Source of the DNA: a virus
Lineage: Duplodnaviria > Heunggongvirae > Uroviricota > Caudoviricetes
DNA length: 8,824 nucleotides
IMG/VR virus record: IMGVR_UViG_2675903509_000012
Strand: one strand, 5' to 3'
Part shown: piece by piece, positions 1 through 8,824 of the stretch
Position numbering within the stretch: the stretch's first letter is position 1
Layout: the number at the start of each line of letters is the position of its first letter
Position numbers and translations under genes: made by a program
Notes under the pieces: generated by a model
What the model saw: the letters and a program-made list of their open reading frames with translations, nothing else
Database searches by the model: none
Told to the model about the DNA's origin: nothing

Positions 1-1
1 A

Positions 2-649
2 CGAATATATGTTTTTCTTCTTTGCTGCTCTAGACTTAGATCCTTTAAGTCGATTAAAGGAGCAGCACAACGTTGGGCAAAGAGCTTTGCCAGAGTATGT
101 AAAGTAGCAATGATTTCTCTCTTACCTGCACATGGCACCGTAAGAATTTTTGATGCTAACTCCGATGATAGGCAAAATTATTATGGAACAAATCTTCGGA
201 CAGCTCTACAAACTTTAGGAAAAGATCTTGGAGTTTGTAGTTTAAACACAAGGGAAATAAATAGAGCTCCCACATCTGGTGATGCCGGGTTTGACCTAAT
301 TGCTACAGTGGAATTTCCTGATGGTCAAACTAGCAACTATGGAATTCTTGGTCAATGTGGTGCACAAGAAACAGGGTGGCCAAGCAAAACATTAGAGGCT
401 AACGTGTTAAAACTGACCACCTATTTCCAAATTGCGTTCCAGCATCCATCAACAATGTTCACGCCTGTTTTCTATCGGGAAGCAAATGGCGAATGGGTAA
501 GCACACACGCAACCGCTGGGGTATTATTATTAGATAGGTTGAGAATCATATATCTACTTGATAAGGCAAACCAATGGGAAGCGATAACTACCTCTGATTG
601 GTTTCGCGAATTTGAGGAAGAGCTTTATACATTAAATCCAGAGCCTTAA
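2..649 (+). CDS. 5'-truncated gene of unknown function (start lies left of the window); candidate restriction endonuclease or other effector paired with the adjacent m5C methyltransferase
   Basis: The frame of the listed 110..649 ORF has no stop codon back to position 2, so the listed Met is probably internal. It ends at TAA 647-649, 7 bp from the stop of the convergent methyltransferase. Both genes are visibly more AT-rich than the phage backbone. I recognise no family motif by eye. Confidence 0.6.
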   Translation, partial: RIYVFLLCCSRLRSFKSIKGAAQRWAKSFARVCKVAMISLLPAHGTVRIFDANSDDRQNYYGTNLRTALQTLGKDLGVCSLNTREINRAPTSGDAGFDLIATVEFPDGQTSNYGILGQCGAQETGWPSKTLEANVLKLTTYFQIAFQHPSTMFTPVFYREANGEWVSTHATAGVLLLDRLRIIYLLDKANQWEAITTSDWFREFEEELYTLNPEP

Positions 650-656
650 TAGCTTA

Positions 657-1601
657 TCAATCCCATAATTCTATTGGCAATGCCTTCGTTACAGCTTCAA
701 AAAGCGGCGGAGGCACTGCATTACCAACCACCGTGTATTTCATGCCAAGACTTGCAGCATTTGTTTCTGGAAACACTAGATCCTCAAACCCTTGTAATAG
801 TGCTGCCTCTCGAAAACTGAATCTGCGAGCTCTCCGATCCTCAACAAATCTCCATTCATCAGTTCTTACTTTCTCCATCGGAGGACTGACAGGATGCAAC
901 GGCATATGCCTTGCATTAGCAACTATTGTCTTTGAAATTTGATCCCAATCCTGGCGACGATTGCGAGACATATAATACCAATGGAATCCCATATCATAAA
1001 ATTCACCTTCTGGCCATTCAGGTAAATGCCCTATAGCATCTTTAATAGTAACATAGTTGACGCCAGTTGCTGGCCCATGAGTTGGCTGAGGGAACTCGTA
1101 CTTAACTTTGAAATCATTACGGATTCCTACGATAAATATTCTTTTTCTTTCCTGCGCTACTCCATATTCAGCCGCATTTAAAACTTTTGCGGAAACAGTA
1201 TAACCTGCTTCAGTAAAAACCCTGATCTGGTCAAATAACAAATGCTCAAAATTTTTTCTAACCATACCAGACACGTTTTCTACTATAAAAGCTTTAGGCT
1301 TTATATTGTTTAAAGCTCTAGCAAACTCTAAATAAAGAGTATTAATTTTTCGATCGGCTTTACGCGCACCACCCTGGCTGAATCCCTGACATGGATAACA
1401 ACCTACCAGCAAATCAGATTTAGGAAAAGTAGTTACATCAGCAATATTGCCTAATATGTAATCAGTTTCTGGATGATTGGCAATATAAACATCGCGCGCA
1501 TACGGCAAGATATCGTTGGCCATAAGCACATCAAAGCCGGCTCTCAAAACCCCCGCATCGGAACCACCGCATCCAGAAAAAAGTGAAACTACTGTTGGCA
1601 T
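657..1601 (-). CDS. DNA (cytosine-5)-methyltransferase, small Type II-like m5C MTase
   Basis: 314 aa with the canonical m5C-MTase motifs in order: SLFSGCGG (motif I, AdoMet binding), GCYPCQGFS (motif IV, catalytic Pro-Cys), FIVENVSGM (motif VI, ENV), QERKRIFIVG (motif VIII), FREAALLQGFED (motif IX), TVVGNAVPPPL (motif X). ATG at 1601-1599 is preceded by the SD AGGAGG (complement of 1605-1612). Confidence 0.9.
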   Translation of the reverse strand: MPTVVSLFSGCGGSDAGVLRAGFDVLMANDILPYARDVYIANHPETDYILGNIADVTTFPKSDLLVGCYPCQGFSQGGARKADRKINTLYLEFARALNNIKPKAFIVENVSGMVRKNFEHLLFDQIRVFTEAGYTVSAKVLNAAEYGVAQERKRIFIVGIRNDFKVKYEFPQPTHGPATGVNYVTIKDAIGHLPEWPEGEFYDMGFHWYYMSRNRRQDWDQISKTIVANARHMPLHPVSPPMEKVRTDEWRFVEDRRARRFSFREAALLQGFEDLVFPETNAASLGMKYTVVGNAVPPPLFEAVTKALPIELWD

Positions 1602-1604
1602 TAT

Positions 1605-1640
1605 CCCCTCCTAAAACCGACCGCGTATTATAGCGAAAGC
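1605..1640 (-). promoter_or_regulatory. Candidate RBS and sigma70 -10 element for the methyltransferase
   Basis: On the - strand, a consensus TATAAT (complement of 1627-1632) lies about 20 nt upstream of the SD AGGAGG. No convincing -35 was found, so this is weak. Confidence 0.3.
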
Positions 1641-1802
1641 CTCCGTATATAGAAGCAGGTTTTGAACAAGATTATGTTCTCACTTTTTAACAACTGTGGC
1701 CATAAAAAATTAGCTCAATATGAAAAACAGATTAATTCATTGTTTTTCATAGAAAAATCCCACAAACACTATAACATTCCCACAACACTGCAGTAGTAGT
1801 CA

Positions 1803-4079
1803 TTATTGTTTAACTGAAAAAACCGACCACTCATTAGCGACCGGATACGTGAATTTTTTCCCGTCATAATTTACGGTTGCCCCACGCGCCAGCGCCTCAA
1901 GCTCCCATCGCTGCGGCCTGATACCGTTCTGAGCAAGGTCAACGCGGATACGGGTAATTTGCATTCGTTCCGACCGGGTCAGTCTGGCCGATGGTGCCAT
2001 TTCATGCGGTTTTAACGGGCTTCCGTTTCTTTGCTGGCGATTTGGTGTTCTCAGGCCATGTTTTAATGCACCTCTGAGCGCCCTCACGACCTCCGGGTCA
2101 TTCCATTCGATGACACCGTCATCAACCAGATTAAGCACTGCTGCGGCGTGCTCAGAAGGTGTGGGAGCTGGTAACGAAGTATCACCACCGGTGAGCTTTC
2201 CACAGTTATTGACAGGACTCCGAGGCGCGGCGATGCCGCTTTTTAAAGTCAAAGGCTCAACGACCGGAACTTTCGGCACAATGCGCCAGTCCGTCGTTCT
2301 GGTGATATGAATATGACGCGCGCCGAGATGCGGCGCGTAAATGCCGACCACTCTCTCGACTTCTTCCTCGTACTCGTTAACGTCATCCGACGGGCTACGG
2401 GCGACCCTGACAGTCTGACAATCGCGCGGGACATTTGCCCCGCCCTGCGCGCTGATATACAACGCAAAATCACCACTGTCTGCAGCGGCGCGTGCAGCCT
2501 CGACGCGCTCGTCAAACTCATGAGCAATGCTGACGCCGCGAGGCAATTTGCGTAGTTCACGGTAAGCCCCCATTGTCGGCAGACCAACCGTTTTAAATTG
2601 CGGGATGCGCCACGTTGACGCCCATGCGGTAACAGCCGCGGCAGTGTCTTTCAGCGGTCTGCCGGTATCATTATCGAGCTGACCATCCAGTGCATATCCG
2701 TCGATATTTTTTGAGATGTATTTCGCGATATACCCCGCAGCACCGCCCCGGTTAAGGTGTTTCGCCTGAAAACGGTTTCGCGCGGCTCCTCTTTCGTCGC
2801 CATCCTCTTTGAGCGCATAGCGACGCATGATTTCGATAATCTGGTTACGCTGGCGTGGATTACAAAAAAGCATCATATGCCAGTGCGGCGTTCCGTCGTG
2901 GTGTGGCTCGACGACTCGCAACCCGTAGACCTGTAAATCATTATCCTTGAATGCCGTGCGCATCAGGCTCCAGATACGGCAGAGATAACGCTGCGCATCC
3001 TTTGGATTAAATGCCTCATCGTTCCAGCCGTGATTTAGCTGGACGGTTTTACTTTCGCCTTTTCTGACCTGACGTGTCGGATGATACTTTGACGGCGCGG
3101 TCAGCGTGATAAACATCCCCACATCACCCTCTGCGGCGGCGTAACGCTCAATACCGGCGATGGTGTTCATCAGCTCCATCCGGCGAATTTCAGGATTAGA
3201 AATACTGCCCATCACCTTACTGATAAGGTCGATGCGCTCGCCGGTTTCCCTGTTTTCAAGGTCACACGATTTAAGAAATTCCAGATTTGCCTGGCGGCGT
3301 GCACGTACATCACGAATGGCATGTTTACTGGCATAAGGAGAACGGTCTTTATTCACCTCCCCGACAGCAATCAGTAACGCCTCATGCCAGCGCATACGCT
3401 GGCCTTTAAGCTGATGAGTCCACCACTCATCGTTAAACAGACGGGCAATGGCAGAATATGCCTGCCTCGTGGTTATCTGTCCTTTACGGTATTTTTTCCA
3501 GTAGAGCGGGGAAATATTGAAAGCACGTGCAGCGCCAGCAACATGACCATACAGATGATCCTGCGCCTCATCCGTAAACAGCGATTCTTTTTCGCCATGC
3601 GCATCCACCCAGGCATCGCAGAGTTCCTCATACATCATGAAAAGCTGCGATGAGATACGGGCGGCAAACTTTTTCAGCTCCTTGTCATTCATCCCCGGCA
3701 GACGCGCATAATGGTCACGCTCTGCCAGAAACAGCAACGACGCGTCGGTGTTCATTTCATGGCGCTGATTCACACGCTCAATGCGCGGCCATAAACGACG
3801 CTGAAAAGTGGATGTGAGAAAATAAAACCCGTGCACCGGGCTTTTATTGCGCCGGATGTAGTCATAGCGTGAAGTAAACAGCGAGCGCAAAAAGTAAGGC
3901 AGGCGGTTAATCGTGGATAAAACACCTTGCACCTGACGCATCTCGTCACGTGTAAGGGGTCTTTCGCGCCCGACGGCCTCGCGTGGCGCGTTCCATGCAT
4001 AAGCACCGGTAAACGTCTTACCGGTGCCTGCGGCAAATGCTGACGGAGGGACAAAACGCCCGGAGGCTTTAACGGCCAT
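1803..4079 (-). CDS. A: P2 gene A-like replication initiator (rolling-circle nicking endonuclease)
   Basis: Roughly 760-aa product, near-colinear with the P2 A protein as I recall it (MAVKASGRFVPPSAFAAGTGK... N-terminus). The ORF-track start at 4121 is a TTG; the in-frame ATG at 4079 gives the MAVKASGRF start and overlaps the stop of the upstream small ORF. Confidence 0.92.
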   Translation of the reverse strand: MAVKASGRFVPPSAFAAGTGKTFTGAYAWNAPREAVGRERPLTRDEMRQVQGVLSTINRLPYFLRSLFTSRYDYIRRNKSPVHGFYFLTSTFQRRLWPRIERVNQRHEMNTDASLLFLAERDHYARLPGMNDKELKKFAARISSQLFMMYEELCDAWVDAHGEKESLFTDEAQDHLYGHVAGAARAFNISPLYWKKYRKGQITTRQAYSAIARLFNDEWWTHQLKGQRMRWHEALLIAVGEVNKDRSPYASKHAIRDVRARRQANLEFLKSCDLENRETGERIDLISKVMGSISNPEIRRMELMNTIAGIERYAAAEGDVGMFITLTAPSKYHPTRQVRKGESKTVQLNHGWNDEAFNPKDAQRYLCRIWSLMRTAFKDNDLQVYGLRVVEPHHDGTPHWHMMLFCNPRQRNQIIEIMRRYALKEDGDERGAARNRFQAKHLNRGGAAGYIAKYISKNIDGYALDGQLDNDTGRPLKDTAAAVTAWASTWRIPQFKTVGLPTMGAYRELRKLPRGVSIAHEFDERVEAARAAADSGDFALYISAQGGANVPRDCQTVRVARSPSDDVNEYEEEVERVVGIYAPHLGARHIHITRTTDWRIVPKVPVVEPLTLKSGIAAPRSPVNNCGKLTGGDTSLPAPTPSEHAAAVLNLVDDGVIEWNDPEVVRALRGALKHGLRTPNRQQRNGSPLKPHEMAPSARLTRSERMQITRIRVDLAQNGIRPQRWELEALARGATVNYDGKKFTYPVANEWSVFSVKQ
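2209..2228 (-). other. Candidate origin nick site inside gene A
   Basis: The - strand reads GCGCCTCGGAGTCCTGTCAA, which matches my recollection of the P2 ori sequence nicked by the A protein. It lies in the distal part of A (codons for AAPRSPVN), as in P2. This is recalled, not searched. Confidence 0.45.
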
Positions 4080-4344
4080 ATGAGCCAAAAGCCTCTGAAC
4101 AACGCTTGCTGAGTTGCTCAACCTGCGCGTTTAAATCAGCAAAAGATTTTGCGCTTCCGGTCAGAATATCGTGATGCATCAGGCCGGAAACGAGCTGGCT
4201 TAATTTCGGGTAATAACCAACCACCGACAGCCATTCCTGACCGGCGTTTTTACCGCTTTCCGCTCTCTTTTTCTCGTGGAGAATAAACTGAAAGCTGTCA
4301 CTGGTAACGACATAACGTTCGCCAATTTCAATACGAATACTCAT
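4069..4344 (-). CDS. Hypothetical small protein of the early operon (position of P2 orf83)
   Basis: 91-aa ORF. Its ATG overlaps the stop of the upstream ORF (ATGA) and its stop overlaps the start of A. Order and size fit the P2 orf80-83 block. Confidence 0.7.
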   Translation of the reverse strand: MSIRIEIGERYVVTSDSFQFILHEKKRAESGKNAGQEWLSVVGYYPKLSQLVSGLMHHDILTGSAKSFADLNAQVEQLSKRCSEAFGSYGR

Positions 4345-4565
4345 GCCGTTCTCCGGTAATGTTTGTTTTTTGCTTCAAAGACTGACTGACAGGAAACACA
4401 ACGCGTGGCTGACGGATAAGCCGCACGACGGGCAGCAGGTATTGGCGCGTCACACTCTTCGCAAACCAGCGAAGAAACACCGCAATGTTTTACCCTTGCC
4501 GCGTTAATCTGGCGCTCCAGTAATTCAGCCTGTTGTTCCTGAATAAAATCTACGTTGTCCGGCAT
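4341..4565 (-). CDS. TraR/DksA-family C4 zinc-finger protein (P2 orf82-like)
   Basis: 74 aa with CEECDAPIPAARR...RCVSCQ...KHY, the four-cysteine motif and spacing of F-plasmid TraR and the DksA C-terminus. Start overlaps the upstream stop (TAATG). Confidence 0.85.
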   Translation of the reverse strand: MPDNVDFIQEQQAELLERQINAARVKHCGVSSLVCEECDAPIPAARRAAYPSATRCVSCQSVFEAKNKHYRRTA

Positions 4566-4867
4566 TACCAGCTCCTTTTATCGTTAAGTATCCTGGATAC
4601 ATCAGCGCAATAACTGGCAAGTTCTGTCGTTAATTTTGTCAGTTCATCCACGGAGGAAATTTGCTTGTGGAATACAGCGCGTTTAACAAGTAAATTGACC
4701 ACATCAGACAGGAGGTTTAATTCATTCTGATAAATCGCGATAACAGATTCAGTGATGTCGCGTTTTTCTTTATCAAGACAAAGTTGAATAAGAGACAAAT
4801 CGCCATTTTCCATAACGGCGATTTTTAAGGCGTTATTCAGTAATACAACTGAATGAGAACAGGACAT
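4565..4867 (-). CDS. Hypothetical small protein of the early operon (P2 orf81 position)
   Basis: The ORF-track start at 4870 is a TTG; the ATG one codon in (4867) overlaps the stop of the upstream ORF (ATGA), so 4867 is the more likely start. Confidence 0.7.
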   Translation of the reverse strand: MSCSHSVVLLNNALKIAVMENGDLSLIQLCLDKEKRDITESVIAIYQNELNLLSDVVNLLVKRAVFHKQISSVDELTKLTTELASYCADVSRILNDKRSW

Positions 4868-5091
4868 CAAAGCACCTCCCCGCGAGACAATCCGATATTG
4901 TGAAATTTTTCCGACTCCTGACTGAGCAGCTCGACTATCTCCACGCGGGATAACTCCGCCTTTGTTATGTGGCGAATCATGGCGTCAAGATGAGAAGAAA
5001 AGCGCGTCGCAGCGTCGGCCTGTGCTTCGGTTCTGGCCTGTTGCAGCAGTAATGCGAATTTACCGCACTGATTTTCAGAAACTGTATGCAT
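4867..5091 (-). CDS. Hypothetical small protein of the early operon (P2 orf80 position)
   Basis: 74-aa ORF with ATG at 5091 and a GGAG SD upstream; sits downstream of B in P2 order. Confidence 0.7.
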
Positions 5092-5154
5092 GACTTTCTC
5101 CAGGCAAAAAGAAGCCCCGCACGATTAAGTGCGTTAAAAACTCTGATTAATTAT

Positions 5155-5655
5155 TTAATGCAGATATTGCTCTGGTTTTACCGACGTCAGAATTGTCGGT
5201 GCATACTCAAACAGGCTGAATAATTCACGTAATGCACGGAATAAAGCATCACGCCAGTAACATGATTCTTCATTAATTCGCCAGTATGGCTGGTTAAATT
5301 CTTTTTCTGTCAGTCGTGCGTGCATAAATAAAGTACGGCGCTGACTGACTGTTAAAAAACTAATATATGCATACTCACTTGCGCCAACCTGACGGCGTTT
5401 TGAGAATGCCCCACGCAGTTCATCAATTGCACATACCAGTCGTTCACGTTCGACGTCGTTCATTTCTTCAAAACGCATCGTTGCGTGACGCTGTTTTAAC
5501 TGCGCATGAAAGCAAACCGTTAGCCGTTCGCGTTCCATCATCTGATTATAATAATCGCATGTCTCCTGCCAGCGAGGGACGGCAAGATGCTTACCAATTA
5601 TCCGGCGCATAGTTGCTGGCTGTTTTTCAACGAGATTAAGCGTCATCACTGTCAT
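5155..5655 (-). CDS. B: P2 gene B-like replication protein (helicase loader)
   Basis: 166 aa, the same length as P2 B, and the sequence matches my recollection of it (MTVMTLNLVEKQP...EQYLH). Its ATG overlaps the stop of the upstream small ORF. Confidence 0.85.
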   Translation of the reverse strand: MTVMTLNLVEKQPATMRRIIGKHLAVPRWQETCDYYNQMMERERLTVCFHAQLKQRHATMRFEEMNDVERERLVCAIDELRGAFSKRRQVGASEYAYISFLTVSQRRTLFMHARLTEKEFNQPYWRINEESCYWRDALFRALRELFSLFEYAPTILTSVKPEQYLH

Positions 5656-5849
5656 TTCCAGACCCTCCGGCTTTTCAGAAAGGTCAGAGCCTTTTTTAAC
5701 GGACTCTGTTTTTTGGTGCGGATAATGATTCCCTTGCGACCCTTCCCGTGGGTGATGGTGAAGTCAATCGCCCTGGGGCTTTCGTTACGCAGTAACTGAG
5801 CAATACAACGCGGCTCATTCATAATCACAACCCCATCCACAAAAGCCAT
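5652..5849 (-). CDS. Hypothetical small protein between cox and B (position of P2 orf78)
   Basis: 65-aa ORF whose stop overlaps the B start (ATGA). An alternative in-frame ATG at 5822 lies 2 nt after the cox stop. Support is positional only. Confidence 0.5.
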   Translation of the reverse strand: MAFVDGVVIMNEPRCIAQLLRNESPRAIDFTITHGKGRKGIIIRTKKQSPLKKALTFLKSRRVWK

Positions 5850-6112
5850 GCATCACGCTGTTCAACCGGTCGGTTATAAAACGCCTCACGTACAGCGCGA
5901 TTAAACTCAGGAATGAAAACCCATTTTTCACCGGCACGAGCCTTCGGTTTGCAAGGATCACGCAATTCAATAATTGGTAATTTATTTGCCTTCACCATTT
6001 CACTGACGGCTGTCTTTGGCTTCCCTAATAAATCAGCAAATTTATCCACATGAACCGCATCAAGCGGATACTGAATCACATAATTTTCAGCGTCCATATA
6101 TGGTACCCTCAT
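5825..6112 (-). CDS. cox: Cox-like excisionase/directionality factor and early-promoter regulator
   Basis: About 90 aa, first gene of the early operon and divergent from the C repressor. The C-terminal pattern KLPIIE...AGEKWVFIPEFN...RDAWLLWMGL resembles P2 Cox as I recall it. The internal ATG at 6097 has a better SD (GAGGG) than 6112 and gives a 90-aa product. Confidence 0.8.
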   Translation of the reverse strand: MRVPYMDAENYVIQYPLDAVHVDKFADLLGKPKTAVSEMVKANKLPIIELRDPCKPKARAGEKWVFIPEFNRAVREAFYNRPVEQRDAWLLWMGL

Positions 6113-6233
6113 AGGATCCAGCCCTTTCTAAACCACTCAAAACCGTTTAGACGCTGGTTTATTCTCAAATCAATGGAACCTATATAGGTTCCAGTTTTGA
6201 GGGAATTTAGTCCCTATATAGGCACCATGTCAA
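6113..6233. promoter_or_regulatory. Immunity switch between cox and C, with candidate repressor operators and early promoter
   Basis: Perfect 18-bp palindrome GGAACCTATATAGGTTCC at 6175-6192 and a second CCTATATAGG at 6213-6222. On the - strand a consensus -35 TTGACA (complement of 6228-6233) is followed about 18 bp later by a -10-like TAAATT (complement of 6204-6209), so the repeats flank the candidate early-promoter -10. Confidence 0.55.
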
Positions 6234-6527
6234 ATGAAATTAAGCGAAAAGATTAAGGCCTTGCGTGAGGCTGAAGGGCTAAGCCAATCAAAATTCTGTG
6301 AAATCATAGAGTTACCGCTAAGCACACTTAAAAAATATGAAGGAGGAAACTTTGAACCCGGTGGCACAGCTTTGCTAAAAATCACTATGCATCCCACATT
6401 CCAAAAATATGCTCTATGGCTTATGACAGATAAAACCGCGCCGGACGCAGGACAAATCGCACCGGCTCTCGCGCACATTGGGCCAGAGTCAACAGAGTCC
6501 AACCACTCCGCGAAAAGGATTGGCTAA
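6234..6527 (+). CDS. C: P2 C-type immunity repressor
   Basis: 97 aa (P2 C is 99) with an N-terminal helix-turn-helix-like region. The C-terminal half (HPTFQKYALWLMTDKTAPDAGQIAPALAHIG) closely resembles P2 C as I recall it. Divergent from cox and upstream of int, as in P2. Confidence 0.85.
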   Translation: MKLSEKIKALREAEGLSQSKFCEIIELPLSTLKKYEGGNFEPGGTALLKITMHPTFQKYALWLMTDKTAPDAGQIAPALAHIGPESTESNHSAKRIG

Positions 6528-6596
6528 CTCTATATAAAGATTACATTTTCACCATTTGCTACCAAGATGGTGAATACAGCGCCGGAGGGCTTTCTT

Positions 6597-7577
6597 ATGG
6601 CAATTAAGAAGCTCGATGACGGTCGCTATGAAGTGGACATTAGACCTCGCGGTCGCGACGGAAAACGCATCCGCAGGAAATTCGAAAGAAAAGCTGAAGC
6701 ACTAGCATTTGAGCGATACACAATCGCCAATGCCAGTCAGAAAGAATGGGGAGGCCAGCGAGCAGACCGCCGAACTTTGAGTGAGTTGCTGGACATCTGG
6801 TGGAAATATCACGGGCAAAACCACGAGCATGGAACAAAAGAGTTTAATCATCTACTCAAAACCATCAGCGGCATAGGTGATATACCAGTGAGCCGGATGA
6901 GCAAAAGGGCTTTGATGGATTATCGTTCCATGCGACTACGTGATGGTATCAGTGCCGCAACGATAAACCGTGACATGTACCGATTATCCGGCATGTTCAC
7001 AAAATTAATTCAATTGGATGAATTTTCCGGGCAACACCCAATTCACGGACTGCCGCCACTGGCGGAGGCCAACCCTGAAATGACGTTCCTGGAAAAAGCA
7101 GAAATCGAAAAACTGTTAAATGTTTTGGCTGGTGATGACTTACTTGTCGCGCTTTTATGTCTGAGCACTGGAGGAAGATGGACGGAAGTTGCCACGCTAA
7201 AACCAGCACAGATTACAAATTGCAGGGTTACCTTCCTGAAAACCAAAAACGGTAAAAAGCGAACCGTGCCGATTTCTGAGGAACTGGAGAAAAAAGTTAA
7301 AGAGGAGGCCAGCGCCAAATTATTCAAAGTTGATTATGAGAAATTTTGCGGGATTTTACGCAGAGTGAAACCTGATATACCACCCAATCAGGCAACCCAC
7401 ATCCTGCGGCATACATTCGCAAGCCATTTCATGATGAATGGGGGCAATATAATCGCACTGCAACAGATTCTGGGACATGCGAGCATTCAGCAGACGATGG
7501 CCTATGCGCACCTTGCGCCTGACTACCTGCAAAATGCCGTCGCTCTGAATCCACTAAAAGGCGGAGTGACGTTATAA
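6597..7577 (+). CDS. int: Tyrosine integrase, P2 Int family
   Basis: N-terminus MAIKKLDDGRYEVDIRPRG matches the P2 Int start as I recall it. C-terminal catalytic signature of tyrosine recombinases: R (TGGRWTE), HxxRH (HILRHTFASH), LGH and the tyrosine in MAYAHL. ATG 6597 has the SD GGAGGG 7 nt upstream; the ORF-track start at 6567 lacks one. Confidence 0.9.
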   Translation: MAIKKLDDGRYEVDIRPRGRDGKRIRRKFERKAEALAFERYTIANASQKEWGGQRADRRTLSELLDIWWKYHGQNHEHGTKEFNHLLKTISGIGDIPVSRMSKRALMDYRSMRLRDGISAATINRDMYRLSGMFTKLIQLDEFSGQHPIHGLPPLAEANPEMTFLEKAEIEKLLNVLAGDDLLVALLCLSTGGRWTEVATLKPAQITNCRVTFLKTKNGKKRTVPISEELEKKVKEEASAKLFKVDYEKFCGILRRVKPDIPPNQATHILRHTFASHFMMNGGNIIALQQILGHASIQQTMAYAHLAPDYLQNAVALNPLKGGVTL

Positions 7578-7590
7578 ATTTCCCCCTCTG

Positions 7591-7612
7591 AGTGTCCACA
7601 TAGTGTCCACAC
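7591..7612 (-). repeat. Tandem direct repeat, candidate Int arm-type binding sites
   Basis: GTGTCCACA-TA-GTGTCCACA on + strand (TGTGGACAC twice on - strand, 11 bp centre to centre), starting 14 bp after the int stop. This matches the P2 Int arm-site consensus TGTGGACA as I recall it. Confidence 0.45.
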
Positions 7613-7696
7613 TCAAGAAATTTTGAAACCACTCCAAACCCTTACAGCTTTCGATAAGTGACTGTTTTTACTTTTGATTGCATGTAAGTAATTGAT

Positions 7697-7723
7697 AAAA
7701 AAAACCCCCACATCATGTGGGGG
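7697..7723 (-). terminator. Rho-independent terminator of cpxP
   Basis: GC-rich hairpin (CCCCCAC / GTGGGGG arms, 5-nt loop) at 7705-7723, followed on the - strand by a run of eight U (complement of the A-run 7697-7704), about 40 bp after the cpxP stop. Confidence 0.7.
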
Positions 7724-7763
7724 AAGACAGGGATGGTGTCTATGGCAAGGAAAACAGGGTTTA

Positions 7764-8264
7764 CTACTGGGAACGTGAGTTGCTACTACTCAATAGCTTC
7801 AACGATGAACTTTTTTGCCATTGCGTCACGTCACGCAACTGCTCCATTCGTTGTTGATGTTTCTCGTTTAAAACCGCTTGCTGCTCCGGCGTTAACAGGC
7901 GATACATTTGGTTGCGGACTTTTGCCATCTCAACCTGACGAGCAATTTGCTCATTCGCCATTTTTTCTGCCTGTGCGCGCACAGCGTTTTCATCAAAATT
8001 TTCTGCGGTGACAAGGCGATGCATTGTCTCCAGTTCGCTAACATTAACAGGAGGCTGTTCGTGCCGGGCCTGTTGCATAAGATCTCGCATCTGCTGACGC
8101 TGATGTTCGGTTAAACTTATGCCGTCGAACATATGGCTCTGCGTACTGCGCTGCGTAAGTTCTTCACCCGGATGCCAGTTATCGCCTGAACCGACTTCAG
8201 CAGCGTGGCTTAATGAACTGACTGCCAGCGTTGAGGCCATGACGGCAGCGGTAACTATGCGCAT
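7764..8264 (-). CDS. cpxP: Periplasmic Cpx-pathway adaptor/inhibitor CpxP
   Basis: Translation matches E. coli CpxP as I recall it ([21 protein letters not shown] signal peptide, [15 protein letters not shown]). The ATG at 8264 has better SD spacing (GGGAG) than the listed 8267. Confidence 0.93.
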
Positions 8265-8342
8265 CATTTGCTCCCAAAATCTTTCTGTCGCGATTCAACG
8301 ATAGAGAGTTTACGATTCAGGCTGCAAACATGCGTCAGGGGG

Positions 8343-8357
8343 TGTAAAACAACGTAA
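8343..8357. promoter_or_regulatory. CpxR binding box in the cpxP-cpxR divergent promoter region
   Basis: GTAAA-ACAAC-GTAAA fits the CpxR consensus GTAAA(N5)GTAAA, in the expected position upstream of cpxP. Confidence 0.7.
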
Positions 8358-8413
8358 AGTCATGGATTAGCGACGTCTGATGACGTAATTTCTGCCTCGG
8401 AGGTATTTAAACA

Positions 8414-8530
8414 ATGAATAAAATCCTGTTAGTTGATGATGACCGAGAGCTGACTTCCCTATTAAAGGAGCTGCTCGAGATGGAAGGCTTCAACGTGATT
8501 GTTGCCCACGATTCTGTGCGTATGGTTTAG
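8414..8530 (+). pseudogene. cpxR: cpxR 5' fragment: first 33 codons intact, then unrelated sequence and a stop after 5 more codons
   Basis: MNKILLVDDDRELTSLLKELLEMEGFNVIVAHD matches the CpxR N-terminus, with SD GGAGG upstream. After codon 33 (about 8512) the frame reads SVRMV-stop instead of GEQALDLL. Confidence 0.75.
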
Positions 8531-8667
8531 CCTCTAACCTTTACCGCTTTACGCCACCGCAAGCCAAATACATTGATATACAGCCCGGTCATAATGAGCA
8601 CCGCACCTAAAAATTGCAGACCCGTTAAGCGTTCATCCAACAATAGTGCCGCACTTGCCAGTCCTGG
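8527..8667 (-). pseudogene. Orphan C-terminal fragment resembling a membrane transporter (EamA/DMT-like), no start codon
   Basis: The - strand encodes ...PGLASAALLLDERLTGLQFLGAVLIMTGLYINVFGLRWRKAVKVRG-stop, a hydrophobic helix plus basic tail typical of a transporter C-terminus. The frame is closed by a stop about 54 codons upstream with no Met. Family assignment is a guess. Confidence 0.35.
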
Positions 8668-8824
8668 CGATATGTGGCGTGTTAGTCCAGCTGTGGACTT
8701 TTGGTTCGCTACCTATTATCGCGCTGGGGCTGGCATTTAGTTTTGCCTTCTACGGCCTGGTGCGCAAGAAGATTGCGGTAGAAGCACAAACCGGCATGTT
8801 AATTGAAACCATGTGGCTGCTGCC
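8664..8824 (+). pseudogene. rarD: Internal fragment of rarD-like permease, no 5' end, runs off the right edge
   Basis: Translation LAICGVLVQLWTFGSLPIIALGLAFSFAFYGLVRKKIAVEAQTGMLIETMWLL matches the middle of E. coli RarD as I recall it. Upstream of about 8664 the same frame reads unrelated sequence (IVPHLPV) and has no start codon. Confidence 0.6.

Follow-up and report, generated by a model that had tools for sequence, protein, structure and literature searches.

How did the first codons of cpxR come to be joined, at the right end of this stretch of Escherichia coli DNA, to an inverted piece of the eamA locus and an internal piece of rarD? The window, by which we mean the whole stretch of DNA that was analysed, was identified by an exact-sequence look-up of a chimeric 38-aa open reading frame as the whole of contig CCBX01000256.1 (8,824 bp, range 1-8824) from the draft assembly GCA_000946315.1, and the patchwork at 8513-8824 is the terminal 312 nt of that contig. 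We put at roughly 85% the probability that these 312 nt represent a chimeric template or a contig-extension error, foreign to the strain's chromosome at this position.

Upstream of the first join, positions 1-8512 are collinear with E. coli O111:H21 strain 15A (NZ_CP077477.1) at 100.0% identity, and all genomes other than strain 15A reach at most 98.8% identity over the full length. In strain 15A, cpxR and cpxA run on intact past the equivalent of 8512. A P2-like prophage adjoins cpxP with its early region, which encodes a replication endonuclease, Cox, a repressor, and an integrase; the int-cpxP-cpxR stretch is an ordinary, collinear arrangement that 792 of the 5,426 complete E. coli genomes share. 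The coordinates of these features, together with those of the junctions and of the three pieces, are collected in Table 1.

Table 1. Features of the right part of the window and their counterparts in strain 15A; positions are those of the window unless strain 15A is named.
Feature	Position	Strand	Observation
P2-like prophage integrase	6597..7577	+	Called gene, Pfam Phage_integrase; at the prophage end adjoining cpxP
cpxP, intact	7764..8264	-	Pfam LTXXQ; annotated as cpxP in matching genomes; 99.9% identity to K-12
cpxR codons 1-33	8414..8512	+	100% identity to strain 15A cpxR, as to that in thousands of other genomes; match stops at 8512
Spurious 38-aa ORF	8414..8530	+	CpxR residues 1-33 followed by 5 residues out of the eamA 3' flank; a called gene in the deposited record
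Junction 1	8511..8512		2-nt overlap 'AT' common to the cpxR and eamA-locus references; window aligned beside both references
Inverted eamA (ydeD) locus piece	8513..8663	-	100% identity to eamA of NZ_CP027355.1 and of strain 15A
Junction 2	8664..8665		1-2 nt overlap ('C' or 'CT') common to the eamA and rarD references; window aligned with the references
Internal rarD fragment, nt 403-563 (codons 135-188)	8664..8824	+	100% identity to strain 15A rarD
Strain 15A, cpxR breakpoint	2,942,922	+	
Strain 15A, eamA piece	524,007 to 523,854	-	
Strain 15A, rarD piece	3,047,409 to 3,047,569	+	

Several further observations concern the prophage and the opposite end of the contig. Homology to K-12 starts at 7694 (within 7578-7763), 3 nt past the 3' end annotated for the sRNA cpxQ, which places the prophage integration site at the cpxP/cpxQ terminator. 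A perfect tandem pair, AGTGTCCACA ... AGTGTCCACA, with its members 11 nt apart, occupies 7591-7611 just 3' of the integrase stop codon, in the prophage-side part of the att region, and could represent an arm-type repeat of the integrase or a repeat of an IHF region. A variable locus past the prophage's replication gene (window 2-649 on the + strand and 657-1601 on the - strand; 1549-3649 in L003) encodes a C5 cytosine methyltransferase of the Dcm type (Pfam PF00145, 2e-64; best PADLOC models DruM-like) as well as a 329-aa protein, present here by its C-terminal 215 aa, that has no match in either Pfam or PADLOC. In strain 15A the 329-aa protein comes after a ParB-N-like protein that matches PADLOC PD-Lambda-5_A (6e-29), and the pair may form a two-gene anti-phage cassette with an uncharacterised second component. 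The left contig end, which falls inside the gene for the 329-aa protein at this hotspot, is clean, with full (100%) collinearity to strain 15A starting at base 1. A second matching place occurs in many of the genomes that match, strain 15A among them, and the left contig break may reflect a second related prophage, unlike the right end, for which there is no such explanation. Position 1234, inside the methyltransferase gene, is N in the deposited record, A in the window, and G in strain 15A; this lone N suggests consensus or scaffolding post-processing of the assembly.

An earlier note on this DNA had described a cpxR gene cut at codon 33, an inverted transporter fragment, and an internal rarD fragment, with breakpoints near 8512 and 8664, and alignment to reference genomes bears out each part of this anatomy. 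The cpxR ATG lies at 8414 and reference identity remains at 100% through 8512, which is exactly 33 codons. The transporter fragment is the eamA (ydeD) locus in reverse orientation, eamA being the gene for the O-acetylserine/cysteine exporter. It matches at 100% identity over 8511-8665, a span that takes in the final 45 codons of the gene, its stop codon (8527-8529), and 16 nt downstream of it; the piece is 151 nt long when only unique bases are counted and 154-155 nt with the ambiguous junction bases, and against strain 15A's own eamA the 100% match spans 8511-8664. The segment that the earlier note had set at 8513-8667 and proposed to trace by alignment comes from this locus as far as 8665. 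The rarD piece begins in frame at codon 135, and the contig terminates inside rarD after 161 nt. Every base of 8513-8824 is accounted for by either eamA or rarD.

In strain 15A the cpxR, eamA, and rarD pieces match at 2.94 Mb, 0.52 Mb, and 3.05 Mb, each at 100% identity. The eamA piece lies 2.4 Mb from cpxR and the rarD piece 104.5 kb from it, so that the wide separation of cpxR and rarD that the earlier note gave for E. coli K-12 also holds in the closest complete genome. Since one genome matches all three pieces at 100% identity, they share a single genome background and do not represent contamination; a second strain as the source of the foreign pieces is ruled out on the same ground.

We searched for both joins across several collections. 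Neither junction is present in any of the 5,426 complete E. coli genomes, and an arrangement shared with related strains, which the earlier note had named among the grounds for doubting its interpretation, is accordingly not found in that set. Exact-string scans returned 0 matches for both junction strings in GTDB representative genomes and 0 matches for the junction 1 string in JGI metagenomes, and the plasmid collection holds no record covering either join. In an assembly collection that includes independent assemblies of public runs, the chimeric 38-aa ORF occurs in one contig only, CCBX01000256.1 itself. The remainder of cpxR, by comparison, is present in 5,426 of 5,426 complete genomes, and the remainders of both cpxR and rarD are single-copy in every one of them. 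Neither the departure of the contig from cpxR at 8512 nor its stop in rarD can therefore be put down to a repeat.

Read literally, the passage from cpxR to rarD would be a 104.5-kb deletion in which 151 nt of inverted eamA serve as filler. The two pieces lie in the same orientation in the reference chromosome, and their coordinates, 2,942,922 to 3,047,409 and both on the + strand, give the order and orientation of a deletion; at a tandem-duplication junction the coordinates would run in the opposite order, and that reading is rejected. In strain 15A the 104.5-kb interval carries yihA/engB, hemG, ubiB, polA, an rrn operon, glnA, dsbA, tatABC, and many other genes, several of which are essential in E. 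coli according to the Keio essential-gene set. A clonal isolate with a simple deletion of this interval should therefore not be viable, and the literal reading is disfavoured. Of the three origins that the earlier note had offered for the structure (a complex rearrangement or deletion scar, an assembly chimera, and an engineered junction), the deletion scar is, in its literal form, weakened by the essential genes in the interval, and the assembly chimera is the one we favour.

The third of these origins, a laboratory deletion or insertion in cpxR, has the abruptness of the joins in its favour and nothing more. Neither FRT nor loxP was found at the joins when up to 3 mismatches were allowed, no vector or plasmid match spans a join, and no sequencing-adapter or linker remnant is present at either of them. 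The inserted bases are all native E. coli chromosome, and recombineering arms would not match the sizes or positions of the pieces. In the light of this lack of a recombinase scar or vector sequence, we regard an engineered junction as scarcely credible.

Mobile elements and site-specific recombination fare no better as sources of the joins. The earlier note had reported no IS element, repeat, or att-like sequence at either junction, and our repeat searches agree, with no direct or inverted repeats found at or near either join. A rearrangement mediated by an IS or transposon was rejected, there being no IS end, terminal inverted repeats, or target-site duplication at the joins. Recombination by the prophage integrase at att sites (for example P2-type eduction) was rejected likewise, in that no repeat connects the prophage-host boundary at 7560-7760 to either join. 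The prophage end and cpxP are both intact. A search of 7500-8824 returned no Rfam families.

Both joins are direct, and each carries the short overlap listed in Table 1. The chance of finding microhomology of at least 2 nt at both junctions is ~0.024, a figure that weakens if the overlap at junction 2 is counted as 1 nt. The junction microhomology is thus slightly above chance, and it is compatible both with chimera formation in vitro and with microhomology-mediated joining in vivo.

The latter compatibility makes it necessary to weigh a real, heritable, complex rearrangement, in which cpxR broke and was mended through microhomology-mediated end joining or replicative template switching (A-EJ, MMBIR/FoSTeS-like). 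Such repair would have taken up, by copying or capture, a 151-nt stretch of eamA in inverted orientation followed by 161 nt or more of rarD; the outcome might be, for instance, a patchwork insertion that inactivates the Cpx regulator. The 1-2 nt of microhomology at both joins and the short inverted insert, copied exactly from another locus of this genome, resemble the products of microhomology-mediated template switching, and the break inside the rarD piece could be repeat-induced if that piece were a second copy. Duplicated pieces should, however, also break the assembly at the 154-nt eamA copy, and there is no break there. The simplest form of such a rearrangement, the 104.5-kb deletion, loses essential genes. 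Neither join occurs among the 5,426 complete genomes or in the scanned collections, and cpxR is present in all 5,426; the nearest relative, strain 15A, is identical over 8.5 kb and has the normal arrangement. Canonical NHEJ is, to our knowledge, missing from E. coli, and natural isolates are not known to capture pieces of chromosome in patchworks; both points also speak against a heritable event of this kind. We consequently judge a real rearrangement to be improbable, and its more specific form, the closing of a double-strand break in cpxR by microhomology-mediated joining with capture or copying of ~150-nt fragments from distant loci (first inverted eamA, then rarD), to be marginally more improbable again.

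The joins could also have formed in vivo without becoming part of the strain's genome, as a product of illegitimate recombination in a few non-viable cells that was sampled by the library as a rare dead-end molecule. The same sequence evidence that points to an artefact would be expected of such a molecule, and the junction microhomology is compatible with joining in vivo; from sequence alone it would be indistinguishable from a chimera made in vitro. A single rare molecule needs over-representation, for example through PCR duplicates, to be assembled, and we hold this origin to be very unlikely, more so than either form of heritable rearrangement.

The reading that we prefer is therefore a chimeric contig end, and it is favoured by the terminal position of the patchwork, the exact copies of distant loci from the same genome, the uniqueness of the joins, the lethality of the literal reading, and the dead end in rarD. 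The pieces measure 151-155 and 159-161 nt, about the size of a read or a small fragment. We infer that short, read-sized fragments (~150-160 nt) of one genome may have been joined end to end during library preparation; alternatively, the culture may have contained a rare dead-end DNA molecule that served as the chimeric template. The chimera would then have been attached to true sequence ending in cpxR, either by the assembler or during contig extension or gap filling. The lone N at 1234, if it marks post-processing of the assembly, would count in the same direction. A dead-end overhang backed by one template explains why the contig leaves cpxR at 8512 and why it stops 161 nt into rarD. The true chromosome is most likely normal, and the assembly's other contigs would carry cpxRA, eamA, and rarD intact.

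Several considerations count against an artefact. It is not obvious why an assembler would take a rare chimeric path over the well-covered true path through cpxR; microhomology at both joins is a signature shared with joining in vivo; and neither join is marked by an adapter or linker remnant.

If the 312-nt patchwork is a chimeric contig end, its biological importance is probably slight, as cpxRA, eamA, and rarD are most likely normal in the strain. The corollary that the earlier note drew for a real join, namely that the strain lacks the response regulator CpxR, is thus unsupported, the join being most likely an artefact, yet it is not formally refuted. The consequence for data quality is more tangible, in that a deposited draft contig bears a false join and a spurious 38-aa 'CpxR' ORF, which can mislead calls of gene presence and absence, pangenome or structural-variant analyses, and scans made from sequence only. 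Were the joins real, the strain would be a natural Cpx-null E. coli isolate with a P2-like prophage adjoining cpxP, and its joins would be a rare case of E. coli repairing DNA as a patchwork through microhomology; we know of no ~150-nt fragment capture of such kind from wild E. coli.

Three known kinds of structure bear comparison with the right end of the window. Products of alternative end joining in E. coli and of FoSTeS/MMBIR template switching show short microhomology and a short exact copy of another locus in either orientation. The window is like them in the short microhomology at its joins and in its short inserted exact copy of another locus, and unlike them in that its donor loci lie very far apart and the simple product would be lethal.

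For MDA chimeras, two points should be stated at the outset: a cultured isolate is not normally amplified by MDA, and the donors here are megabases apart. Lasken & Stockwell (2007; PMC1855051) report MDA chimeras as inverted in >85% of cases and as having 2-21 nt of complementarity in >70%, and describe intramolecular rearrangements, within one branched DNA molecule, as favoured; we take this preference to mean nearby sequence. Measured against that account (PMC1855051), the window is similar in its one inverted segment and its priming-like microhomology of at least 2 nt, and dissimilar in that its pieces lie 2.4 Mb and 104.5 kb apart and its second join is not inverted. The favouring of rearrangement within one molecule, as given there (PMC1855051), together with the two points made at the outset, led us to set aside an MDA-type chimera.

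In place of the single join of chimeric contig ends or misassemblies in short-read bacterial drafts, the window has two consecutive joins with read-sized pieces. Known causes of chimeric ends in draft assemblies are chimeric library inserts and errors of contig extension or gap filling. The window resembles these contig ends in that its joins lie at the extreme end of a short contig with a dead end soon after the last of them, in that each joined piece exactly copies a distant locus that is single-copy in the same genome, and in that the joins occur in no related genome.
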